Of a stretch of 32,000 nucleotides of DNA, positions 4,532 through 30,680 are shown piece after piece. The notes under the pieces were generated by a model. It did no database searches, was not told the DNA's origin, and saw only the letters and a program-made list of their open reading frames with translations. Both the position numbers and the translations under genes were made by a program. This DNA comes from Candidatus Saccharimonadota bacterium (GTDB lineage: Bacteria > Patescibacteriota > Saccharimonadia > Saccharimonadales > Saccharimonadaceae), in NCBI GenBank assembly GCA_023898645.1, contig CP060232.1, forward strand, positions 360,001-392,000. The letters are read 5' to 3'. Within the stretch, counting starts at the first letter, position 1. Each line of letters begins with the position of its first letter.

Positions 4532-6148
4532 ATGGCAAAAAAGATTTCAAAAATACCGATAAGGATCCCTAAAGAAGAGGCGCTTAAGTCGGCACTCGTA
4601 AATACCGCCGGAGCTCTCATGCTAACTAAGCACAGTCCAGACGAAGCGCTGGGCGACTTATTTACTGATGTCCAGAGCAGGCAAGTGTACGACGATGGTA
4701 TGACGTTCGTGGATCTTATACCACGTGAACGAATGCAGCATATCAGAAAGCAATACCACATCGCTAAAAGTGATCCTGACTTTGATTTGCACGAATTTGT
4801 AACCAGGCATTTCTATGCGTACGAAAATTCAAACGGCGAGTATCACACTAACTCCAGTCATACACCGCGTGAGCACATACGCGAGCTATGGAAGGTGCTC
4901 GAACGACGTAATCGTGTAGACAGGGGATCGCTCATAGCTATACCGTACACATATGTCGTGCCGGGTGGCAGATTCAGCGCTCAATTTTATTGGGACAGTT
5001 ACTTTACTATGCTTGGTCTTGCCGCGGATGGTCGCTGGGATATGGTCGAAAACATGATCAAGAATGCTACGTACATGATTCGTAAGTTTGGTTTTGTTCC
5101 GACGGCAAATAGGACGTATTTTCTCTCTCGCAGTCAGCCGCCGTTTCTTTCGCACATGGTGCGTTTACTCGCTAGGCATCAAAATCGCACTTTGACACTG
5201 CTTGAACACCTGCCTTATTTACTGGGTGAGTATCGTTTTTGGATGAATGGACGAAAGATGCTTGGTAAACTCGATGAATCTGCAGCTGTACGTCGAGTTG
5301 TGTTGATGCCAGACGGTACTATGCTTAATCGTTACTATGACAACAAGCGAACGCCACGGCCGGAATCGTTGCGAGAAGACGTTGAAACGGCTCGAAGTAA
5401 GGATACTGAAAAGGCAGAAAAGCTTTATCTTGACTTACGTGCTGCAGCTGAAAGCGGCTGGGACTTTAGTAGTCGATGGTTCTCTGACTCTCACGAGCTT
5501 GGCTCTATCCATACTACCGACATCGTTCCGGTTGACTTGAATTGTTTGATGTACCATTTGGAAATGACGATTTCTGAAACGTATCAACTAATGTATCAAC
5601 CTCTGCTAGCGCGTAAATACAGAAAGCTTGCAGAAAAGCGTCAGGCAGCGATTAGTCGATACATGTGGGACGAAAACGAGCAGTTTTTCGTTGACTATGA
5701 TTTTCGTACCGGCAAAAAGACAGGAAGATTAACGATAGCTGGAGTGTTCCCGTTGTTTACAAAAGTTGCTACGCCGGCTCAAGCTAAAGCTGTGGCGAAA
5801 CGCTTAGAAAAAGACTTTTTGAAAGATGGTGGGTTAGTCACGACACTTATAGAAAGTGGTCAGCAGTGGGATTGGCCAAACGGCTGGGCGCCCATGCAGT
5901 GGGTGGCAATACAAGGACTACGCGAATACGGGTACTATACACTTGCCGATAAAATAAAAAAGGCATGGGTTGAAGCTTGCCTATATACCTATAAAGAAAA
6001 GCAGAAAATGGTCGAGAAATATAACGTCGTGCATCCACGTAAATTAAGCGGCGGAGGAGAATATTCACTGCAAGATGGCTTTGGTTGGACGAACGGAGTA
6101 TTAGCCGCGTTGCTTGCAGAGGATGACAAGCCTGAAGCTAGGAATTGA
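4532..6148 (+). CDS. treA: Trehalase, glycoside hydrolase family 37
   Basis: Motifs FYWDSYFTMLGL, SQPPFLSHMV, AESGWDFSSRW and QWDWPNGWAPMQW are GH37 signatures. The start is ambiguous: ATG 4532 is preferred (GGAG 6 nt upstream, or near-leaderless from the promoter above); ATG 4520 and TTG 4493 are alternatives. Confidence 0.85.
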   Translation: MAKKISKIPIRIPKEEALKSALVNTAGALMLTKHSPDEALGDLFTDVQSRQVYDDGMTFVDLIPRERMQHIRKQYHIAKSDPDFDLHEFVTRHFYAYENSNGEYHTNSSHTPREHIRELWKVLERRNRVDRGSLIAIPYTYVVPGGRFSAQFYWDSYFTMLGLAADGRWDMVENMIKNATYMIRKFGFVPTANRTYFLSRSQPPFLSHMVRLLARHQNRTLTLLEHLPYLLGEYRFWMNGRKMLGKLDESAAVRRVVLMPDGTMLNRYYDNKRTPRPESLREDVETARSKDTEKAEKLYLDLRAAAESGWDFSSRWFSDSHELGSIHTTDIVPVDLNCLMYHLEMTISETYQLMYQPLLARKYRKLAEKRQAAISRYMWDENEQFFVDYDFRTGKKTGRLTIAGVFPLFTKVATPAQAKAVAKRLEKDFLKDGGLVTTLIESGQQWDWPNGWAPMQWVAIQGLREYGYYTLADKIKKAWVEACLYTYKEKQKMVEKYNVVHPRKLSGGGEYSLQDGFGWTNGVLAALLAEDDKPEARN

Positions 6149-7313
6149 GCAGCCGTTTAGATATACGGATGACTTTTTGGCTAATTCTAGCGGGAGTACC
6201 CTGGTCGGGCTGAGGTTTTTTTGGTTTAGCATTTTCGCTTACTATTCGCGTAAGCACTTCTTCGTAGCCGTCAATCATAGTGGTTAATGAGAAGTTTTTG
6301 ACTACATGATCTCGGCAATCTTTGCGTTTAATTGTCGGAAGTTTTTCAATCGCTAGTATCATTTCAGCGCTGTTGTTGACTATGAACCCAGTTTTTTCAT
6401 CCTTAACAACCTCTTGTACCGATCCTCGGTTGAAAGCGATTACTGGTGTGCCGCAGGCTCCCGCCTCGACCATCGCCAGGCCGAACGGTTCTTGCCATTG
6501 GATAGGCATAAGTAGTCCGCCGGAATTTTGGTAGTATTTAACCAGTTGGGCACGTTCCAGCATGCCGAGGAATAATATTTTGTTGCTCAAATATGGTTTT
6601 ACATGCTCATCAAAGTACCATTGGTCAGATTTAGAAACCGATCCAGATATCAATAGTTTGCGATCAGTCTGCATGGCTATTTGAACTGCTTCTTTGACGC
6701 CTTTGTCGGGCGTGACGCGGCCAGAAATCATCAGATAATCTTCTGGTTCACCGTCAGTTGTAAATAAATCAGTATCTATGCCGTTATATACAGTTGCGGC
6801 ATAGTTTATGTCGGGCGCGTCTCGGCGCTGACTATCGGAAATAGAGATGAAATGCTGGTTTGGCGTGCTGTGCATTTCTATGGCTTCGCGACGATCGCTG
6901 TCTATGAAGTCATGAACGATGTAGACGACGGGAACTTTAGGGAATAGGCCGGCTATCGGTAGTGCGGATTCAAAGTGGTGGAACAGTACGCAATCGAATT
7001 CCCCGCTTGCTGCTCGTTCTAAGATTTTCTTTACGAAACTTGCGTCATAAAGTGCCGGTCGGTAATCGCTAAAGAGTTCAGTCGTGCCCACAAAGTCATC
7101 AAGCTCCGCCTGATCTTTAGCTACGGAGTGCATGCCGTACGTTTCGATGGTATCAACATCAAGCTTTGTACCCTCGGGTCCAAAAAACGTCACTGTGTGG
7201 CCTCGTTGCTGTAGTCCTTCTGCAAGGGTTTGAGCAATAATTGCTGGAGAATAAGCAACGTTGCCTGGTGGGGGGGTCTCGAGAAACGCTCGGACCATCA
7301 TTGCAATTTTCAT
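6138..7313 (-). CDS. Glycosyltransferase family 4 (GT-B fold)
   Basis: N-terminus MKIAMMVRAF and a C-terminal EPFGLAMVEAGACGTPVIA motif (the E-x7-E region of GT4). Start taken at ATG 7313; the ORF-track start at 7352 adds 13 unlikely residues. The 3' end overlaps the trehalase gene by 11 nt in convergent orientation. Confidence 0.8.
   Translation of the reverse strand: MKIAMMVRAFLETPPPGNVAYSPAIIAQTLAEGLQQRGHTVTFFGPEGTKLDVDTIETYGMHSVAKDQAELDDFVGTTELFSDYRPALYDASFVKKILERAASGEFDCVLFHHFESALPIAGLFPKVPVVYIVHDFIDSDRREAIEMHSTPNQHFISISDSQRRDAPDINYAATVYNGIDTDLFTTDGEPEDYLMISGRVTPDKGVKEAVQIAMQTDRKLLISGSVSKSDQWYFDEHVKPYLSNKILFLGMLERAQLVKYYQNSGGLLMPIQWQEPFGLAMVEAGACGTPVIAFNRGSVQEVVKDEKTGFIVNNSAEMILAIEKLPTIKRKDCRDHVVKNFSLTTMIDGYEEVLTRIVSENAKPKKPQPDQGTPARISQKVIRISKRLLNS
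7270..7276 (-). repeat. C7 (coding strand) homopolymer about 12 codons into the GT4 gene
   Basis: The plus strand reads GGGGGGG at 7270-7276, encoding T-P-P-P. It is currently in frame. Confidence 0.9.
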
Positions 7314-7386
7314 AAATTGTGATGCATCTCTGCAATATATTGAGTATAACACGAATAAAGGATATTGTAAATTTTACACCCTTTTT

Positions 7387-8600: not shown

Positions 8601-10436
8601 ATGTCCGAAGAAGATTCATCATTCAGCCAAACCACTGCAAGCCAAACTTCTTCGCAGATTCTTGACGAGCAGAATGAGCCCCAACTACAGTCCAAGCACT
8701 TATCGATTGAGGAGATTATTAAGAACGTACCCAAGCGTAAGACGCACTGGAAACAGTCTGTCGTGTATCAAATTTATCCGTGGACGTTCAACGAAGACAA
8801 AGGCCGAAATCCACAAAGGGGTCATGGATCGATTCTGGGTATAGCCGAAAAGATGCCGTATCTGAAGGACGATCTTGGCGTTGATGCTATTTGGCTGTCG
8901 CCGTTTTATCCGTCACCAATGAAAGATGGTGGCTATGACGTTAGTAATCTTACGGACGTGCACCCAGATTTAGGCACGCTTGATGATTTTGATGAAATGA
9001 TGAAAGCGGCGCACCGTCATGGCATTCGCGTGATGGTCGACTTTGTACCAAATCACACGTCAGACCAGCATGAATGGTTTCAGAAATCTCGCAATCGCGA
9101 AGAAGGTTTTGAAGATTGGTATATATGGCATCCCGGACACACAGGAGAGAACGGCGAACACTACCCGCCAAATAATTGGGCGTGCGTATTTTCAATCCCC
9201 AATCGTCAAGCCCGCAACCGCGGTGAGATGTCTTGGTTGCAGCCCCATGAATGGACGCCGCCGATTTCTGCATGGCAGTGGGACGACGTTCGTGGCGAAT
9301 ATTACATGCACAGCTTTGCAGTAGAGCAGCCTGACCTCAACTGGAGCAACCCCTATGTTCGCGAAGCCATGAAAGACGCTATGCGTTTTTGGATCGACAA
9401 AGGTGTCGATGGTTTTCGCGTTGACGCAGTCAATCATATCGGTAAAAACATGGACTTTCCAGACGAAGGGGTCAACACCGCCTATGACGAAGCATGGTGC
9501 GACAATCCTTACGATCAGGTGCTGCGCCACAATAGCGCGGATTATCCCGAAGCACTCGACAAATACGTGTGGGAAATGGGGCAGGTACTGAAGGACGACA
9601 GATACATTGGTCGTGACCTGCGAATGGTACTCGAGGCCTACATAGGCGAGTCGCAGCTTCGTGATCTCGATGCAATTGCACCGTCATATGCTAATACGTT
9701 CAATTTTGGTCGTATGCTACTTGATTGGAACGTGCAGAATCATAAGATCCAACTAGACTATTACTACTCCCGACTTAATCAAAACGCCATCGGTAATCAA
9801 GTTAACGGCAACCACGACAAGCCTCGACTAGCTACTCGCATGGGCGATGAGCGCGCACGAACAGCGATTGTGATCAACATGTTTTTGCCCGGCATGACGT
9901 TTATATATAACGGCGAAGAACTTGGTTTGCACGACGCAGAAATACCAGAAGATCGTATACAAGATCCGAACGGTCTGCGCGATCCGGCGCGAACACCTAT
10001 CATATGGAACGACGAAGAGCCGAACGGCGGTTTCAGCAATGCCGATCCAAACAACCTATGGTTACCGACAAATTTGTCGGACATGCACTTGTCGTTGACA
10101 AAACAAAAGCAAGACAATAAGTCGTCATACTCACTTTACCGAGCGGCAAATATCTTGCACCATGAGCTGCCCGTCATCCAGCGCGGTATGTACAGTAGTC
10201 ATCATACAGATAACGATCAAGTGCTAGCCTATGGGCGTAGCTACGATGAAAACTATGCGGCGGTTCTAGCAAACTTTTCTGAACACGAACAGTTCGTAAA
10301 AGTTTTAGACAGCCCGTTTGTCATTGGTACCGCAGTGCTTTCAAGTATCTCAGTTGTTGAAAATCAAAGAAATGTTGACCTCCGTGCTGGCGTTAAGCTT
10401 GCGCCGCATGAGGCACTCGTAATACTCTCTGCGTAG
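8601..10436 (+). CDS. GH13 alpha-glucosidase / oligo-1,6-glucosidase-like enzyme, copy 1, with a Ser/Thr/Gln-rich N-terminal extension
   Basis: VVYQIYPWTF, DAIWLSPFYPSP, DFVPNHTSDQHEWF and GVDGFRVDAVNHI correspond to GH13 conserved regions I-II. An extended -10 (TGgTATAAT, 8555-8563) lies upstream. Confidence 0.85.
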   Translation: MSEEDSSFSQTTASQTSSQILDEQNEPQLQSKHLSIEEIIKNVPKRKTHWKQSVVYQIYPWTFNEDKGRNPQRGHGSILGIAEKMPYLKDDLGVDAIWLSPFYPSPMKDGGYDVSNLTDVHPDLGTLDDFDEMMKAAHRHGIRVMVDFVPNHTSDQHEWFQKSRNREEGFEDWYIWHPGHTGENGEHYPPNNWACVFSIPNRQARNRGEMSWLQPHEWTPPISAWQWDDVRGEYYMHSFAVEQPDLNWSNPYVREAMKDAMRFWIDKGVDGFRVDAVNHIGKNMDFPDEGVNTAYDEAWCDNPYDQVLRHNSADYPEALDKYVWEMGQVLKDDRYIGRDLRMVLEAYIGESQLRDLDAIAPSYANTFNFGRMLLDWNVQNHKIQLDYYYSRLNQNAIGNQVNGNHDKPRLATRMGDERARTAIVINMFLPGMTFIYNGEELGLHDAEIPEDRIQDPNGLRDPARTPIIWNDEEPNGGFSNADPNNLWLPTNLSDMHLSLTKQKQDNKSSYSLYRAANILHHELPVIQRGMYSSHHTDNDQVLAYGRSYDENYAAVLANFSEHEQFVKVLDSPFVIGTAVLSSISVVENQRNVDLRAGVKLAPHEALVILSA

Positions 10437-18851: not shown

Positions 18852-18927
18852 GCGGGTGTAGCTCAGTTGTTAGAGCGCTTCCTTGCCAAGGAAGAGGTCG
18901 AGAGTTAGAGTCTCTTCACCCGCACCA
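18852..18927 (+). tRNA. tRNA-Gly(GCC), CCA encoded, with noncanonical D loop and T loop
   Basis: Acceptor GCGGGTG/CACCCGC and anticodon loop TTGCCAA (GCC). The D loop is AGTTGTTA and the T loop is TTAGAGT, where AGTTGGTA and TTCGAGT would be usual. Confidence 0.85.
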
Positions 18928-20526
18928 TTTTAGACTTAGAGCCTCTTCGGAGGCTTTTTGTATCTGTTGAGGCAAGGTTCTAACCATTTCTAGCTCGGTA
19001 CGTATGCTTTTAGCGTTCTTAGCCACCGGAATTAGCCACTTATTTGCCTCTATCTCCAGTACACCGTTATTCAATACAGGATTTTGTCCGATTGCCAGCA
19101 ACACCTCTCTTTTAATGGCAATGTCACCATCCCTAAACTTGTCGCTAGCATAGGTTAGCTTATCGAATGTTTGCTCGACTATCTCGTACCAATTCTTTAT
19201 GCGGTGACTGACATCTGCCTGTTCTTCTTGTAGGCGTACCAGGTCGGTCTTAAGAGCGGCGCTTTTGGTTTTATACTCTTCATCGTCAATTAGCGCTCTA
19301 GTTGCCATGTCTAGCAGCTTATCTAGCTGTGACTGAGTACTAGCAATGGCTTTATTCTGCGCATCCTGTACACCGTTGCGCTCATCAATTTCTTTACTGG
19401 CGAATTCGCGTAGGGCATCCATAGTCCACTCGTACATCTTTGGATGCAATTCGTAGCTATCCATTAACTCAAGTAGCATTGCCCATAACTTTTCTTCGCG
19501 CACGTTGATAGACTTTTGCGTACAATCTTTGTTTTTGCCGGTACAATGATAATAAATATACTCGTGACGGTTACCATTTTTCTGTATCTTTATTTTGTGT
19601 TCCGCAGTAATACTTAGGCCGCAGGCGGCGCATCGTATAAATCCTCTTAATGCAAACTGCTTGGTTGATGCTAAACGCGGGAAGCCTTTGTCGCCTAGTA
19701 GCACCTGCACCCTGTCATACTCCTCTTGTGTAATCATTGCGGGGAAATCTGCATCATAAAACTTTTCGGGGGCATATGGGTCGGGCACAAGTCCGGCATA
19801 CCGCACATTGCGCAGTATGTTATACAAGCTGCTACGTGATATGGTGCGGTTGCCTTTGCGTCGGGTGTTTGGCGTTTGGTAGCCCCATTCCTCATTCATA
19901 ATCTTACGAATAGACTGCACGCTATATTCACCGGTCAAGAATAAATCGAACGCCTTGCGGATAAGGTCAAATCGCTCGGGGTCTTTTACGACTATGGCTT
20001 GGCCTCTGCCGCCACCCGAAACCTTGATACGCTCATTTAGGTAACCGGCCGGAGCTATGCCGGTCAGCCCACCCTGCTGCCGTTTCGTGGCATTGCCGCG
20101 TTTTACATCCTTGCTTAGCTTGGCGGAGAAGTATTGTGACTGACTCATGGTCATTTGTAGCATCATCATGCTCTCTGGAGTGTTATCAAAACTAAAGCCA
20201 GAGGCAAACCTGAGGTCTTTAATCTTACCTTGCCGTATGCGCCATGTTATTGAACTTGCATCTACTTCATTGCGGCTCAGTCGGTCAGGGTGCCACGCAA
20301 TAATTCCATCAATTTTGCCCGCATCCACCATAGCGAGCAGCTCTTTGAACAGTGGACGCTTATCCGGCTCGAAAGCACTTTTACTCTCCGGTTCAATCCA
20401 GGCAACAATATTAAGGTCACCGAAACGCTCTTTAATTTTGTCCCGCTGGCTATCCAGTGAAAGTACTTGTCGCTCGGCTTCCTCGGTTGATTTACGCGTG
20501 TATACCGCATATCGTAGATTTTCCAT
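18916..20526 (-). CDS. Large serine recombinase (resolvase domain, recombinase domain, Zn ribbon and coiled coil)
   Basis: N-terminus YAVYTRKSTEE with the catalytic Ser in an R-x-S-T context, followed by IIAWHPDRLSR. Cys cluster CAACG...YYHCTGKNKDC and a C-terminal coiled coil. AAGGAGA RBS precedes ATG 20526. The last 12 nt overlap tRNA-Gly. Confidence 0.85.
   Translation of the reverse strand: MENLRYAVYTRKSTEEAERQVLSLDSQRDKIKERFGDLNIVAWIEPESKSAFEPDKRPLFKELLAMVDAGKIDGIIAWHPDRLSRNEVDASSITWRIRQGKIKDLRFASGFSFDNTPESMMMLQMTMSQSQYFSAKLSKDVKRGNATKRQQGGLTGIAPAGYLNERIKVSGGGRGQAIVVKDPERFDLIRKAFDLFLTGEYSVQSIRKIMNEEWGYQTPNTRRKGNRTISRSSLYNILRNVRYAGLVPDPYAPEKFYDADFPAMITQEEYDRVQVLLGDKGFPRLASTKQFALRGFIRCAACGLSITAEHKIKIQKNGNRHEYIYYHCTGKNKDCTQKSINVREEKLWAMLLELMDSYELHPKMYEWTMDALREFASKEIDERNGVQDAQNKAIASTQSQLDKLLDMATRALIDDEEYKTKSAALKTDLVRLQEEQADVSHRIKNWYEIVEQTFDKLTYASDKFRDGDIAIKREVLLAIGQNPVLNNGVLEIEANKWLIPVAKNAKSIRTELEMVRTLPQQIQKASEEALSLKWCG
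18941..18960 (+). terminator. Rho-independent terminator after tRNA-Gly
   Basis: GCCTC-TTCG-GAGGC followed by TTTTTG. It lies inside the antisense 3' end of the recombinase ORF. Confidence 0.7.
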
Positions 20527-24203: not shown

Positions 24204-25787
24204 ATGAATGATACGAAAAAAGAACAAGAGCGCGCTAAATTGCACGCAACCATATGGAAAATTGCCAACGACTTACGAGGCAGTGTAGATGGCTGGGACT
24301 TCAAGCAGTATGTGCTGGGCATGTTGCTATATCGTTTTATTTCCGAAAACTTGACCAACTACATCAATGTACAAGAGCTACGTGACCCGAGTAATCCTCG
24401 CGACTTTAATTACGCATCACTAAGTGACGACTTCGCAGAACGCGGCCGCACAGAAACTGTTAAAGACAAGGGCTTTTTCATACTACCTAGTGAACTTTTC
24501 GAGAACGTCCGCAAGCGCGCAAAGACCGACGACAATCTCAACGAAACTCTGTCTGGCATTTTCCGTAACATAGAAAATTCCGCCAAGGGTGCTGATAGCG
24601 AAGACGACATAAAGGGTTTGTTTGATGACATTGACGTCAATAGCAACAAACTCGGCTCATCTGTAGACAGGCGCAATAAGCAGCTCATTCGTTTACTGGA
24701 TGCAGTTGGCGATTTGCAGTTAGGCAGCTACAAAGATAATACAATCGATGCCTTTGGCGACGCGTATGAGTTCCTAATGGGGATGTACGCTAGTAATGCC
24801 GGTAAGTCCGGCGGTGAATACTACACGCCCCAGGAGGTTAGTGAGTTACTGGCGCGTATCACTGTTGTTGGCAAAAAAGAGGTTAATAAAGTCTACGACC
24901 CCGCTGTGGGTTCCGGCTCATTGCTTCTTCAGTTTGCGAAGATACTGGGCAAAGATAATGTCCGCAAAGGTTTCTACGGCCAAGAGATTAACCTAACCAC
25001 CTACAACCTATGTCGTATTAACATGATTTTGCACGACATCAACTATACCGAATTCAACATCGCGCACGGCGACACCCTTGTAGAACCAAGCGAGGAACAT
25101 TGGCAGGAAGAGCCGTTCGAGGCAATTGTATCTAATCCGCCATATTCAATTCACTGGGCAGGTGACAGCGACCCACTACTTATTAACGACCCACGCTTTA
25201 GTCCAGCGGGCGTCCTAGCACCAAAGAGCAAGGCAGACCTCGCATTTACTATGCATATGCTTAAATGGCTAGCGACTACTGGCACGGCAGCTATCGTTGA
25301 ATTTCCTGGTGTTCTCTACCGAGGTGGTGCAGAAGCTAAAATTCGTAAATACCTCATAGATAACAACTTTGTTGATGCTGTCATACAGCTTCCTCCTGAC
25401 TTATTCTTTGGAACTGGCATAGCTACCTGCATTCTAGTACTCAAAAAGAGCAAGCACGACAATGCTACGCTTTTCATTGACGCTAGCGCCGAATTTGTGC
25501 GAGGTGGTAACAAGAATAAGCTCAATGAAGCCAATCGCAATAAAATTCTGGAAGCATACACCAATCGCGTTGATGTAGACCACTTTGCAAAGCTTGTGAA
25601 AAATGGCGATATTGCCACGAACGATTACAATATTGCGGTCAGTAGTTATGTTGAACGAGAAGATACACGAGAAATTGTGAATATCGCTGAACTCAACAAT
25701 GACATAAGCCAGATTGTCGCCAGGCAAAGCAAGCTACGCGCAGAGATTGATGCGATTGTGTCAGACATTGAGGGTGGTCATGAGTAA
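24204..25787 (+). CDS. hsdM: Type I restriction-modification methyltransferase subunit HsdM
   Basis: The N-terminal HsdM domain begins LHATIWKIANDLRG. AdoMet motif VYDPAVGSGSLL and catalytic motif IV NPPY (SNPPYS). 527 aa. Confidence 0.9.
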   Translation: MNDTKKEQERAKLHATIWKIANDLRGSVDGWDFKQYVLGMLLYRFISENLTNYINVQELRDPSNPRDFNYASLSDDFAERGRTETVKDKGFFILPSELFENVRKRAKTDDNLNETLSGIFRNIENSAKGADSEDDIKGLFDDIDVNSNKLGSSVDRRNKQLIRLLDAVGDLQLGSYKDNTIDAFGDAYEFLMGMYASNAGKSGGEYYTPQEVSELLARITVVGKKEVNKVYDPAVGSGSLLLQFAKILGKDNVRKGFYGQEINLTTYNLCRINMILHDINYTEFNIAHGDTLVEPSEEHWQEEPFEAIVSNPPYSIHWAGDSDPLLINDPRFSPAGVLAPKSKADLAFTMHMLKWLATTGTAAIVEFPGVLYRGGAEAKIRKYLIDNNFVDAVIQLPPDLFFGTGIATCILVLKKSKHDNATLFIDASAEFVRGGNKNKLNEANRNKILEAYTNRVDVDHFAKLVKNGDIATNDYNIAVSSYVEREDTREIVNIAELNNDISQIVARQSKLRAEIDAIVSDIEGGHE

Positions 25788-26424
25788 GATTGACGACCTC
25801 ATTAAGCAGTTTTGTCCTGACGGTGTGGACTTTATGGAACTAGGTGAGCTACTTGACTATGAACAGCCTGGCAGATACATAGTCAGTAGCACAAATTATA
25901 GTGATGAGCATTCCACGCCGGTTCTTACAGCTGGTCAGAGTTTTATACTGGGTTACACCAACGAAGAGCACGGTATTTACATGGCCAGTTCGGAAAATCC
26001 TGTGATTATATTTGATGATTTTACTACCTCATTCCACTGGGTAGATTTTAACTTCAAGGTGAAATCATCGGCAATGAAAATGCTACGCCTAAAACCTGAC
26101 AATCCTATTGATTTTCGTTTTGCATACTACGCAATGCGATGCATAAACTATAGCCCCACCGACCATGCGCGTCATTGGATTTCTCAATACTCAAAGTTTA
26201 CGATACCTGCACCTCCTCGCGAAGTGCAGCAAGAAATAGTGAAAACACTGGACAAGTTCACACAATTAGAAGCGGAGCTAGAAGCGGAGCTAGAAGCGGA
26301 GCTAGAAGCGGAGCTAGAAGCGAGAAAGAAGCAATACCAATACTATCGCAATCAACTTTTGACATTTGATTCATCGGGGGGGGGCGAAGTGGAAGACCCT
26401 TGGCGAGGTGGCGATGTACTCTAA
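25780..26424 (+). CDS. hsdS: HsdS specificity subunit, N-terminal half (TRD1 plus central conserved helix); frame ends after the G8 tract
   Basis: ATG 25780 overlaps the hsdM stop (ATGAGTAA). TRD1 is followed by LDKFTQ(LEAE)n...RKKQYQYYRNQLLTF. The frame then passes through G8 (26376-26383) and stops at 26422-26424. Confidence 0.85.
   Translation: MSKIDDLIKQFCPDGVDFMELGELLDYEQPGRYIVSSTNYSDEHSTPVLTAGQSFILGYTNEEHGIYMASSENPVIIFDDFTTSFHWVDFNFKVKSSAMKMLRLKPDNPIDFRFAYYAMRCINYSPTDHARHWISQYSKFTIPAPPREVQQEIVKTLDKFTQLEAELEAELEAELEAELEARKKQYQYYRNQLLTFDSSGGGEVEDPWRGGDVL
26266..26321 (+). repeat. 12-bp tandem repeat (AGAAGCGGAGCT) x4.6 inside hsdS
   Basis: Four perfect units at 26267-26314 plus a 7-nt partial unit. 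Together they encode LEAELEAELEAELEAELEA in the central helix. Confidence 0.95.
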
Positions 26425-26956
26425 AGCTAGAATTGAAGCCGAACACCTCAACGATGATAATTACGTTGGGGTTGATAACATTTTGCAAAACCGACAAGGT
26501 AAAACCGCGTCCAGCCATGTACCTAGCTCTGGAAATCTTACACGATTTGATAGAGGTGATGTACTTCTTGGAAACATTCGACCATACTTGAAAAAGATAT
26601 GGCACGCTGACAAAACTGGCGGTACAAACGGTGATGTTTTGGTAATAAAGTTGACAGATGATAGCGTCACGCCAAGATACCTGTACCAAGTTCTATCAGA
26701 TGACAGATTTTTCGACTCCGAAATGAAGTATGCAAAAGGCGCAAAGATGCCACGTGGCGACAAGAATTCGATTATGAAATATCCTGTACCCGTGCCGTCA
26801 ATTCCAAAGCAAAATCATATAGTTTCAGTTTTAGATAAATTTGACGCTTTAGTGCATGATATCACTGAGGGCTTGCCTGCCGAGATAACCGCGCGAAGAA
26901 AACAGTATGAGCATTATCGTAACAAGCTACTGTCATTTACGGAGCTACCTGCATGA
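26366..26956 (+). CDS. hsdS: HsdS C-terminal half (TRD2 plus distal conserved helix), in the +1 frame relative to the N-terminal half
   Basis: KWKTLGEVAMYSKARIE is a typical TRD start, and the sequence ends ARRKQYEHYRNKLLSF. The stop overlaps the hsdR ATG (ATGA). Only weak internal starts are available (TTG 26366, ATG 26414). Confidence 0.8.
   Translation: MIHRGGAKWKTLGEVAMYSKARIEAEHLNDDNYVGVDNILQNRQGKTASSHVPSSGNLTRFDRGDVLLGNIRPYLKKIWHADKTGGTNGDVLVIKLTDDSVTPRYLYQVLSDDRFFDSEMKYAKGAKMPRGDKNSIMKYPVPVPSIPKQNHIVSVLDKFDALVHDITEGLPAEITARRKQYEHYRNKLLSFTELPA
26376..26383 (+). repeat. G8 homopolymer at the TRD1/TRD2 junction of hsdS
   Basis: tcatcGGGGGGGGcgaag, counted directly from the sequence. Confidence 0.95.
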
Positions 26957-29900
26957 ACAAGTACAGCATGGTGGCGGAAAACCCGCATAGTACAGTTGTT
27001 GCCGAGTTTATACCCGCCGCGCGCCGCGCTAGCGATTATCAAAGTGAAGCTGAGCTAGAGCAGGCATTGATTGAACAGCTGCAAAGGCAAGCATACGAGT
27101 ACCTGCGTATCTCCAGCGAAACCGACCTCATTACTAATCTGCGCGCTCAATTAGAAAAACTCAACGATTACCAATTTACCGACACTGAGTGGGAACAGTT
27201 CTTCAAGCAAAACCTCGCCAATCCTAGCGAAAGCATAGAGGAAAAGACTACTACTATTCAGGAAGACCATGTTAAAAACCTAACGCGCGACGATGGTACG
27301 GTTAAAAATATTAGATTGCTCGACAAGGTAAGCATCCACAATAACAGCCTGCAAGTCATCAATCAGTACGAAATTGAGGGCGCACGAGCAAATCGTTACG
27401 ATGTGACAGTATTAGTTAATGGACTACCTCTAGTTCATATAGAACTAAAACGGCGTGGCGTGGACATCAAAGAGGCGTTTAACCAAATAAACCGTTACCA
27501 GCGCGATAGCTTCTGGGCAGGTAGTGGGCTATTCGAGTACGTGCAGTTATTTGTCATTAGCAACGGAACGTACACAAAGTATTACAGCAACACCACTCGT
27601 AACCAGCACGTTAAAGACGGTGGCAATATCAATAAAAAAGGCAAAAAGACCAGCAACAGCTATGAGTTTACAAGTTGGTGGGCAGACGCTCGCAACAAGC
27701 CAATTACTGATTTGACCGATTTTGTTGCAACGTTTTTTGCAAAACATTCACTACTGAATGTGATTACTAAATACTGCGTATTTACAAGCGACCGTTTACT
27801 GCTGGCGATGCGGCCATACCAGATTGTAGCAACCGAGCGTATTCTTAACCGCGTAGAGGTTAGTACTAACTATAAAAAGTTAGGCACCATAGAGGCGGGT
27901 GGCTACGTTTGGCACACCACCGGTTCAGGTAAAACGCTGACCAGTTTCAAGACCGCTCAGCTAGCAAGCAAGCTAGAAGACGTAGAAAAAGTACTATTCG
28001 TGGTAGACCGCAAAGACTTGGACTACCAGACAATGAAAGAGTACGACAAGTTCGAAAAAGGCGCCGCGAACAGCAACACAAGCACCGCGAAACTCAAAAA
28101 ACAGTTGGAAGACCCGAACGCTCGCATCATTATCACGACTATCCAAAAGCTAGATAAGTTCATCAAAAAGAATGAGGGGCACCGCATTTTTGACGGACAC
28201 ATCGTTTTAATTTTTGACGAATGTCACCGCAGTCAGTTTGGCGATATGCATCACTCCATTACCAAGAGCTTCAAGAATTACCACCTTTTTGGTTTTACGG
28301 GCACTCCTATTTTTCCGCAGAATATATCAAGTGGTGGACGCGCCGACCTTAAGACCACCGAGCAAGCCTTTGGCGAAAAGTTGCACACATACACCATTGT
28401 TGACGCCATTACCGATAAGAACGTTTTGCCATTCCGCATTGACTACATCAGTACTGTACGTGAAGCAGAAGATATAGACGACGAACAGGTGCGTAGCATT
28501 GATACTGAGGCAATCTTAGGAGCGCCGGAACGCATTAGCAAGGTCGTGCAATATATTCGCGACCACTTCGACCAGAAGACTAAGCGGAACAGCACCTACA
28601 TGTTTACCGGTGCGCTGCAAAACATTCACGAGGTTGCCACCGCGCGCGACAGGCACGCCATCGAAGAAATAAAGCAGCGTATTCGACTTAGCGGCTTTAA
28701 CTCTATTTTCGCTGTCAGTTCTATAGAAACGGCAAAAAAGTACTACGCCGAATTCAAGCGCCAGCAAGCAGAGGCTCCAGAGGCGTTACGGCTCAAAGTG
28801 GCTATTATTTATAGCTACGGCGCCAACGAAGACGAAGAACTTTTTGACGGGCTAGAAGACGAGAACAGTGAGGGTACCGAGGGGCTAGATAGTAGTTCAC
28901 GCGACTTTCTTGATAACGCAATTCGCGATTACAACCAGATGTTTGCAACTAGCTATGATACATCAGCCGACAACTTCCAGAATTATTACAAGGACGTGTC
29001 GCTACGTATGAAAAACCGCGAAATCGACCTGCTTATTGTGGTTAACATGTTCCTTACTGGCTTTGATGCAACGACCCTCAATACGCTGTGGGTGGACAAA
29101 AAGTTGCGGTCACACGGTTTGCTGCAAGCATATTCTCGCACCAATCGTATCCTAAACTCAGTTAAAACTTTTGGTAATATCGTGAGTTTCCGTAACCTTG
29201 AAAAAGCCACCAATGACGCCTTGGCATTGTTTGGTGACAAAGAAGCCGGTGGCATTGTGCTGCTCAAGAGCTATAACGATTACTACAATGGCTACGACGA
29301 CAACGGTAAACATCAGCGCGGATACGTGGAGCTGGTTACCGAGCTAATGGAGCGGTTCCCTGTAGGTCAACAAATCATTGGTGAGCAGGCTCAGAAAGAG
29401 TTTATTAAGCTATACGGGGGCATCCTGCGCGTGCGTAACATCCTGAGTACGTTCGACGATTTTGAGGGCAATGAAATTCTTTCTGCCCGTGATGTTCAAG
29501 ACTACCACAGTATGTATATCAATTTGTATAACGAGTTCCGCAAGGGTACCGATGCCGACAAAGAAAACGTCAATGACGATGTTGTGTTTGAGATGGAGCT
29601 GATTAAGCAGGTAGAAATAAACATTGATTATATCCTTGAACTGATACGCAAGTACCACGCCGGAAACCAAGAAGACAAAGAACTACTCGTTGACATCAAT
29701 AAGGCTGTTGATAGTAGCGTTGAGCTACGCAACAAGAAAGACTTGATAGAACAATTCATTACCTCACTCAACGTCAATTCATCGGTAGATGAAGACTGGC
29801 GTAAATTCGTCGATACTAAAAAGGTAGAAGAACTTAACCGCATTATCCAGGAAGAGGGATTAGACCACGATGAAACCTATCGCTTTGTAGACAATGCATT

Positions 29901-30072
29901 CCGCGATGGCTCGCTGCAATCCACCGGCACGGCAATTGCTAAAATTCTGCCGCCCGTATCACGCTTTTCAGCAGATAACTCACGCGGCAAAAAGCGCGAA
30001 ACGGTGCTCGACAAGCTGACCAACTTCTTTAATAAATTCTTTGATATATCTAGCGGCAAAATGGAGGACTAG
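26953..30072 (+). CDS. hsdR: Type I restriction enzyme R subunit HsdR (type IC-like, 1039 aa)
   Basis: N-terminal nuclease region (VLVNGLPLVHIELKRRG), SF2 helicase motifs (HTTGSGKT, DECHRSQ, FTGTP) and a C-terminal helical domain. The length matches EcoR124I-type HsdR. Confidence 0.9.
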   Translation: MNKYSMVAENPHSTVVAEFIPAARRASDYQSEAELEQALIEQLQRQAYEYLRISSETDLITNLRAQLEKLNDYQFTDTEWEQFFKQNLANPSESIEEKTTTIQEDHVKNLTRDDGTVKNIRLLDKVSIHNNSLQVINQYEIEGARANRYDVTVLVNGLPLVHIELKRRGVDIKEAFNQINRYQRDSFWAGSGLFEYVQLFVISNGTYTKYYSNTTRNQHVKDGGNINKKGKKTSNSYEFTSWWADARNKPITDLTDFVATFFAKHSLLNVITKYCVFTSDRLLLAMRPYQIVATERILNRVEVSTNYKKLGTIEAGGYVWHTTGSGKTLTSFKTAQLASKLEDVEKVLFVVDRKDLDYQTMKEYDKFEKGAANSNTSTAKLKKQLEDPNARIIITTIQKLDKFIKKNEGHRIFDGHIVLIFDECHRSQFGDMHHSITKSFKNYHLFGFTGTPIFPQNISSGGRADLKTTEQAFGEKLHTYTIVDAITDKNVLPFRIDYISTVREAEDIDDEQVRSIDTEAILGAPERISKVVQYIRDHFDQKTKRNSTYMFTGALQNIHEVATARDRHAIEEIKQRIRLSGFNSIFAVSSIETAKKYYAEFKRQQAEAPEALRLKVAIIYSYGANEDEELFDGLEDENSEGTEGLDSSSRDFLDNAIRDYNQMFATSYDTSADNFQNYYKDVSLRMKNREIDLLIVVNMFLTGFDATTLNTLWVDKKLRSHGLLQAYSRTNRILNSVKTFGNIVSFRNLEKATNDALALFGDKEAGGIVLLKSYNDYYNGYDDNGKHQRGYVELVTELMERFPVGQQIIGEQAQKEFIKLYGGILRVRNILSTFDDFEGNEILSARDVQDYHSMYINLYNEFRKGTDADKENVNDDVVFEMELIKQVEINIDYILELIRKYHAGNQEDKELLVDINKAVDSSVELRNKKDLIEQFITSLNVNSSVDEDWRKFVDTKKVEELNRIIQEEGLDHDETYRFVDNAFRDGSLQSTGTAIAKILPPVSRFSADNSRGKKRETVLDKLTNFFNKFFDISSGKMED

Positions 30073-30077
30073 CAAAT

Positions 30078-30680
30078 ATGTCAAAAGGAATAATCTACTT
30101 AATGTCCACCGCCGTATCTGGCCTGGTGAAGATTGGCAAAACTGGCACGGTCAATTATCCAGAACGAATGCGCTTCCTGGAGGCTAATGGATACTACAAC
30201 GTTGCGGGCTTACGACGCTATTTCGCTATCGAGCTTGAAGATTATGACGATAAAGAAAGTCTACTGCACGAAATTTTTAGCAAACACCAAGTTGGTACCA
30301 GCGAGCTTTTTGCGTTAGACCAAGACCTAGTACGTCAATTGTTGCTATCATTTGATGGTAAAGTTATCTATCCTGAAAAAATCAACAAGGAAAAAGAGTT
30401 CGACGAAGTGGCGACCGCCCGCAAGCAAGGTGCGTTATTCAGCTTTTACCGTAAAGGTTTGCAAGACGGTGACGAAATCAACTTTATATCTGATAAATCT
30501 ATTATCGCAACCGTCAGCGGAGAGCGAGAAGTTGAGTACGGCGGTCAAGTATGGAAGTTGTCACCACTAACATACAAGATTTTCGAGGATAAGGGGCAGC
30601 TAAACAGTAGCGGCGCCTATCAGGGTGCAAACTATTGGCAATTCAATAATCACAAACTAAAAGATTTGCCTGATAAGTAG
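30078..30680 (+). CDS. GIY-YIG-like T5orf172 domain protein with a DUF4357-like C-terminal domain
   Basis: The N-terminus GIIYLMS...GLVKIGKT...ERMRFL...ELF fits the T5orf172 pattern. The C-terminus EINF...ATV...EVEYGGQVWKLSPL...YWQFNNHKLKDL fits DUF4357. It starts 5 nt after the hsdR stop, with GGAGGA upstream. Confidence 0.7.
   Translation: MSKGIIYLMSTAVSGLVKIGKTGTVNYPERMRFLEANGYYNVAGLRRYFAIELEDYDDKESLLHEIFSKHQVGTSELFALDQDLVRQLLLSFDGKVIYPEKINKEKEFDEVATARKQGALFSFYRKGLQDGDEINFISDKSIIATVSGEREVEYGGQVWKLSPLTYKIFEDKGQLNSSGAYQGANYWQFNNHKLKDLPDK

Follow-up and report, generated by a model that had tools for sequence, protein, structure and literature searches.

A perfect 12-bp tandem repeat of 4.67 copies, encoding (LEAE)4LEA, lies at 26267..26322 on the forward strand of the stretch of Candidatus Saccharimonadota DNA analysed here (32,000 nucleotides; hereafter the window). 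In our judgment this repeat is probably the tetra-amino-acid ruler of a type IC HsdS, present in a four-unit state and carried by an HsdS that a G9 tract truncates to half its size. It adds an example to a known mechanism, both devices being already known from EcoR124I/II and NgoAV; it is mildly new in its host, which lies outside the classical pathogens, in the rare four-unit state, and in a probable difference of two vs four units between samples of one clone.

The repeat array and the central helix of HsdS

The maximal period-12 run is 56 nt long and 100% perfect. Exact copies of the unit AGAAGCGGAGCT start at 26268, 26280, 26292, and 26304, and AGAAGCG comes after the last of them, so that the four perfect units and the 7-nt partial copy described in the earlier note are confirmed, while its coordinates for this real and perfect repeat (26266-26321) were off by one. 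The TRF score of the array is 112, as against 36 or less for all other arrays in the 32-kb window, and the longest lag-12 identity run is 44, whereas it reached 11 at most in 200 shuffles. Translated in the hsdS frame, the array reads QLEAELEAELEAELEAELEARKK; its wider context in the frame from ATG 25780 is ...DKFTQLEAELEAELEAELEAELEARKKQYQYYR..., and (LEAE)4 corresponds to HsdS residues 163-178.

The gene belongs to an operon of the order hsdM-hsdS-hsdR with overlapping stop and start codons. The product of hsdM (24204..25787, forward strand; 527 aa) contains the Pfam domains N6_Mtase (1e-111) and HsdM_N, and the stop codon of hsdM overlaps the start of hsdS within ATGAGTAA. The ATG of hsdR (26953..30072, forward strand; 1039 aa; Pfam EcoR124_C, T1R_D3-like, SWI2_SNF2, and HSDR_N) overlaps the hsdS stop codon (ATGA) and has its own GGAG 8 nt upstream. 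HsdR showed strong homology to EcoR124 HsdR (2w00/4bec; 849 bits, E 6e-254), including the C-terminal domain PF12008 EcoR124_C (E 8.6e-70), and HsdS, once repaired by the removal of one G (see below), matched EcoR124 HsdS (7bst_A) in two stretches in a phmmer search (E 6.9e-75). Judging from these sequence matches, the locus is a type IC restriction-modification system of the EcoR124 family, in agreement with the EcoR124-style parallel drawn previously. No promoter signal around the operon exceeded the level expected from shuffled sequence.

Upstream of the operon, a tRNA-Gly(gcc) gene (18852..18927) and the 3' end of a gene for a large serine recombinase (18916..20526, reverse strand; domains Resolvase, Recombinase, and Zn_ribbon_recom) overlap, and hsdMSR therefore appears to lie within an island integrated at tRNA-Gly; a megablast search of the hsdMSR operon against the PLSDB plasmids found no match. 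Housekeeping genes (typA, ddl, rarA, trehalase, and amylases) are found upstream, and a search with TypA gave many matches of 82-92% identity. Directly after hsdR there is a gene for a 200-aa protein (30078..30680) that matches PDC-S57, a candidate defence family of PADLOC (E 9e-57), and Pfam T5orf172/MUG113. A 200-aa gene likewise follows hsdR directly in the related locus L007 (78% identical; 9274..9876), and this same position suggests a conserved hsdMSR plus PDC-S57 module. L007 has an additional 151-aa ORF with no Pfam match between hsdM and hsdS (4546..5001), which is absent from the window. Elsewhere in the window, a G7 run (7270..7276, forward strand; C7 on the coding strand) is found about 80 nt into a GT4-family glycosyltransferase gene (6138..7352, reverse strand), a tract position typical of phase-variable surface-glycan genes; this gene is in frame with its G7.

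The array lies within the central conserved helix CR1 (26218..26361, forward strand; residues 147-194), which AF2 predicts as a helix over exactly these residues with a pLDDT of about 78-95. The AF2 model of the repaired HsdS (mean pLDDT 88.8) has a single continuous 48-residue helix through the repeat, which together with the translation supports the assignment of (LEAE)n to the HsdS central helix, and the best PDB fold match of the model is 7bst_A (EcoR124I HsdS; E 5e-21). In the phmmer alignment the LEAE units fall exactly on the TAEL units of EcoR124, where a gap of 8 residues opens in the EcoR124 sequence, so that the repeat does occupy the TAEL position of EcoR124I/II, as had been proposed. 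The spacer from LDKF to RKKQY is 21 residues long here vs 13 in EcoR124I. The distal helix CR2 (26801..26929, forward strand; AF2 helix over residues 341-383 of the repaired protein) pairs with CR1 in antiparallel fashion and has a spacer of 17 residues (DALVHDITEGLPAEITA). The length of CR1 minus that of CR2 is +4 residues here and -4 in EcoR124I, and the two are equal in EcoR124II; with CR1 exceeding CR2 by 4 residues, the four-unit protein may have little or no activity.

Our family survey covered 79 loci from GTDB representative genomes, 120 best database homologues, and 148 representatives; the representative search, made with the CR1 segment, put three-TRD HsdS first (summed stretches) and was used as a spacer-class sample. 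The CR1 spacers fall into classes of 9, 13, and 17 residues with a mode of 13, and besides that of the window no 21-residue (four-copy) spacer was found among about 310 homologous central helices. The sole homologue found with a longer ruler than that of the window is P0077 (389 aa, ENA; TNLEAELEAQLEAELEAQLEAELEA), whose 25-residue spacer is seemingly made of a 24-nt (8-residue) higher-order unit. Three-TRD HsdS of about 590-630 aa with three conserved helices, several of them from Streptococcus suis, were frequent among the strongest matches (e.g., P0009, P0012-P0014, P0035, P0050, and P0246-P0263) and represent the 'extended' HsdS class of Atack et al.

In the mechanism that we propose, each 12-bp unit would lengthen CR1 by four residues (LEAE, about one helical turn), and the antiparallel pairing of CR1 with the second helix would set the distance and twist between the two TRDs. 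Each extra unit is predicted to widen the non-specific gap in the target by 1 bp, as in the characterised relatives. Because the units are identical at the DNA level, they can be gained or lost in frame through slipped-strand mispairing or unequal recombination.

The poly-G tract and the split hsdS gene

By direct count, the homopolymer in the hinge between CR1 and TRD2 is G9 (26376..26384, forward strand) and begins 54 nt past the repeat, which corrects the earlier note, where it was given as a G8 tract 55 nt downstream. Nine Gs are out of frame, and eight would be in frame; TRD2 is therefore out of frame, hsdS is split as sequenced, and the repeat sits in a half-size HsdS. ORF1 (25780..26424, forward strand; 214 aa; Methylase_S domain) comprises TRD1 and the repeat-bearing CR1, aligns over residues 13-213 to residues 13-212 of EcoR124 HsdS, and ends in a 13-residue out-of-frame tail, GEVEDPWRGGDVL. 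TRD2 is in the +1 frame, which is open from 26366 to the stop codon at 26956, with 189 open codons past the G tract. ORF2 (26414..26956, forward strand; 180 aa from ATG 26414), which comprises TRD2 and CR2, was recovered by translation and by gene calls, the same 180-aa gene being predicted in each of five independent contigs. Removal of one G gives a full-length HsdS of 391 aa, and the TRD1-CR1-TRD2-CR2 organisation is present only after this repair. The idea that one gene carries two hypervariable devices thus holds in so far as the repeat and the poly-G are both present, but the gene is split by G9 and the poly-G is invariant in six assemblies. Annotation pipelines will label this hsdS a pseudogene.

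The product as sequenced would be a 214-aa half-size HsdS (TRD1 plus CR1). By analogy with NgoAV, EcoR124I-delta50, and EcoDXXI-deltaC, this half-HsdS is expected to homodimerise via CR1 and to methylate and restrict an interrupted palindrome; the predicted targets in the G9 state are a half-site, N9, and its complement with four units, and N7 in place of N9 with two units. If TRD1 reads GAA, the target predicted for four units is GAA N9 TTC, although GAA is a guess only, as TRD1 is just about 53% identical to the GAA-reading EcoR124 TRD (PDB alignment). P0117 was dropped as a stand-in for the EcoR124 TRD1 because its TRD1 differs. With one G fewer (G8), the two ORFs would be joined as the 391-aa HsdS with an asymmetric site, for which we infer a gap of N8 with four units and N6 with two.

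Both halves may instead be made in the G9 state. ATG 26414 lies 11 nt before the ORF1 stop codon (26422..26424), overlapping the end of ORF1, behind a Shine-Dalgarno-like GAGGT at 26405..26409, and it is a possible coupled restart site, from which TRD2 and CR2 would be made separately. The re-initiated ORF2 would then form, with ORF1, a non-covalent split HsdS with full asymmetric specificity, in addition to homodimers. The prediction of the 180-aa ORF by gene callers in the five contigs and the purifying selection on TRD2 (see below) fit such an arrangement, and it has a precedent in EcoDXXI, in which the co-expressed N- and C-terminal halves of HsdS restore wild-type specificity (PMC3874165). 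However, the GAGGT also codes for the conserved LGEV and is present in the in-frame hsdS of L007, and so may be coincidental, and the hsdS2 product of NgoAV was reported to be inactive (PMC9577141). We regard the production of both halves as rather unlikely, and give the same weight to its consequence, namely that under G9 TRD2 is retained and the specificities are present in a different mixture. We continue below with the four-unit ruler in a truncated half-HsdS as the preferred reading.

Copy number in other samples and evolution of the units

Exact look-ups of HsdM, HsdR, and ORF2 led to contigs from at least five other samples, all 100% identical to the window. The alignment of one of them, L001 (SRR7638747), with the window is 9,196 nt long and free of mismatches, and its one gap, of 24 nt, equals two repeat units: L001 has 2.67 copies, vs 4.67 in the window, and its two-unit ORF1 is 206 aa long. 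A two- vs four-unit difference between clonal samples is probable. All 31-mers of L001 occur in the 4.67-copy allele, and since the 2.67-copy allele has no private 31-mers, this Logan contig (k=31) could be a shortest-path collapse. We nevertheless judge the short allele likely to be real, because the same pipeline broke at the repeat, and did not collapse it, in another sample (SRR14234121), and because the cycle k-mers of a 4.67-copy genome would carry double coverage. The two SRR14234121 contigs, L002 and L006, break exactly 30 nt into the repeat, one from each side, as expected of a k=31 graph with an array of at least 44 nt (at least 3.67 copies), and L089 (ENA megahit, k141) starts with exactly 44 nt of repeat.

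The HsdS of L007 is 79% identical to that of the window and is intact (384 aa), with G8 in frame at the homologous site, so that G8 is the in-frame state; its repeat consists of 2.6 copies of GGAAGCGGAGCT. The closest HsdS relatives among the GTDB representative genomes are 57-61% identical and come from unrelated MAGs. In the GTDB type IC hsdS loci (L008-L086), LEAE units differ by 0.39 nt within genes vs 2.31 nt between genes, and LTAE units by 0.03 nt within genes vs 2.46 nt between genes, the differences between genes being at synonymous sites. This identity within genes and divergence between genes indicates concerted evolution, i.e., recurrent slippage or conversion across the family. 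It is common in the family for the DNA to show perfect period-12 runs, up to 50 nt long, and perfect units are accordingly a family norm and no peculiarity of this locus. The recent expansion or contraction suggested in the earlier note is thus backed by family-wide concerted evolution, and also by the 2.67-copy contig with the caveat of collapse; the units are homogeneous within genes, where they have not diverged at synonymous sites in the way that would speak for a fixed repeat number.

It is unlikely, in our view, that the repeat is a fixed coiled-coil feature with a constant long spacer, L001 being an assembly collapse and no switching taking place. The shared 31-mers would be consistent with this, as would the occurrence of the short form in one contig only: a designed-allele exact look-up (1-6 units with G9 and 1-5 units with G8) returned only the 206-aa two-unit ORF1 of L001, and two scans of JGI metagenome contigs for exact patterns (both flanks with a variable repeat, and the right junction alone) gave no match. 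Against it, besides the break in the other sample, ten cycle k-mers of a 4.67-copy genome would be at 2x flank coverage and should escape pruning, and the homogenisation within genes with divergence between genes requires recurrent slippage or conversion. In addition, the 13-residue spacer is the family mode and the 21-residue spacer is otherwise unseen, which argues for a recent expansion in this lineage. The ruler reading is thus the one that we retain.

The poly-G tract showed no variation in length, G9 being found in six of six assemblies of the organism (at least five samples); these are consensus assemblies of one clone, in which minority G-tract variants would not show. Poly-G or poly-C tracts of 7-9 nt, 27-35 nt after RKKQYxYYR, are recurrent in several lineages in ON and OFF frames. 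For example, Prevotella has G7 in frame, vs G8 out of frame in Segatella, and further hinge-tract loci occur in a Rhodobacteraceae MAG, Histophilus, and Mannheimia. In the Neisseria homologues this hinge contains GGG or GGGG.

In a comparison of the window with L007, dN is 0.103 in TRD2 and 0.144 in TRD1, with dS saturated. These values indicate that TRD2 is under purifying selection, and being at least as constrained as TRD1, ORF2 is not an old pseudogene. That hsdS is a frameshift pseudogene fixed at G9, in a dead or decaying system in which the repeat length is inconsequential, would agree with the G9 of all six assemblies and with the absence of the exact 214-aa ORF1 from the protein collection, as expected of a pseudogene annotation, but we consider it very unlikely: the assemblies are clonal (0 mismatches), so that the six G9 counts are not independent, ORF2 is open for the 189 codons past the tract and constrained as above, hsdM and hsdR are both intact and encode complete sets of domains, and truncated type IC HsdS are active in NgoAV (natural) and in EcoR124I and EcoDXXI (engineered).

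Public assemblies made with short k-mers (Logan, k=31) are systematically interrupted at the 56-nt array, as seen at the ends of L002, L003, L006, and L088-L091. Judging from such contig breaks and from the absence of the exact ORF1 protein, rulers are probably under-reported or mis-sized in assembly-derived databases, since short-k assemblies break or collapse at arrays of this kind.

We put forward, with more doubt than conviction, that the ruler jumped between two and four units in one clone, and that its natural range reaches gaps of N8 (full-length HsdS) and N9 (half-HsdS homodimer). If this is true, the ruler together with the G8/G9 switch and a possible re-initiated ORF2 would yield six or more specificities from one hsdS locus. 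The tolerance of the coiled coil for a length mismatch between its two helices was reportedly flagged as unresolved by Loenen et al., and the same locus would provide a natural test of it for a helix mismatch of +4 residues. If the copy number varies and the enzyme is active, the methylated and restricted sites would change with the DNA-reading domains unchanged, and the susceptibility to phages and plasmids, and possibly gene regulation, would differ from cell to cell. The four-unit state could be used to probe the limits of the ruler, and the family-wide concerted evolution of the units is of further added value.

Comparison with known type IC systems

The ruler is an established principle, dating from 1989 for EcoR124I/II and from 2011-2019 for NgoAV. 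The HsdS of the window resembles that of EcoR124I/II in the hsdM-hsdS-hsdR order of its operon, in the position of the repeat in the same helix, in the 12-bp in-frame unit, and in the pattern x-A-E-L. It differs in having LEAE where EcoR124I/II have TAEL, and four units (21 residues) where they have two or three (13 or 17 residues). EcoR124 is encoded by the E. coli plasmid R124 and has no poly-G, whereas the locus in the window is chromosomal, in a tRNA-Gly island, and split by poly-G. Tandem tetra-amino-acid repeats (TAEL, LEAT, SEAL, and TSEL) in the central conserved region are a hallmark of type IC systems (PMC10030836). EcoR124I, with two TAEL units, recognises GAA N6 RTCG and EcoR124II, with three, GAA N7 RTCG, and EcoDXXI hybrids follow the same unit-to-gap rule (PMC3874165).

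C-terminally truncated type IC HsdS homodimerise through CR1 and read palindromes; EcoR124I-delta50 with two units recognises GAA N7 TTC, and EcoDXXI-deltaC with three units recognises TCA N8 TGA (PMC3874165). ORF1 is like these proteins in that it consists of TRD1 and CR1 with the repeats and is without TRD2, and this likeness is the basis of our gap prediction. They are, however, laboratory truncations with two or three repeats, whereas ORF1 results from a natural frameshift and has four.

SSR-containing hsdS genes have been catalogued in a REBASE survey (Atack et al., 2019/2020; PMC7383803). As in the genes of that survey, the tract in the window lies between the TRD regions, right after the TAEL(n) coiled coil, and is predicted to toggle between a full-length and a truncated protein. 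The survey omitted unit lengths divisible by three, and the window adds an in-frame 12-mer array with evidence, subject to the caveat of collapse, for a difference in copy number.

In NgoAV, 0-3 LEAT repeats and a downstream poly-G frameshift lead to the recognition of GACN6TGC, GACN7TGC, or GCAN8TGC (PMC6789123), and the poly-G varied from 6 to 9 among 92 gonococcal strains (PMC9577141). NgoAV of Neisseria gonorrhoeae and the system in the window both have one hsdS with the same order of elements, i.e., tetra-amino-acid repeats in CR1 and then a hinge poly-G, and in both the frameshifted HsdS of about 208-214 aa (as in strain FA1090) is TRD1 plus CR1. In NgoAV the copy number (0-3 LEAT) differs by strain, and its combinations alter the methylated motif. 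The two HsdS are only about 57% identical, and the units are LEAE here vs LEAT in NgoAV. The downstream part is degenerate and inactive in FA1090, whereas ORF2 in the window is intact and conserved, and the poly-G of the window, unlike that of NgoAV, is invariant (G9) in the assemblies.
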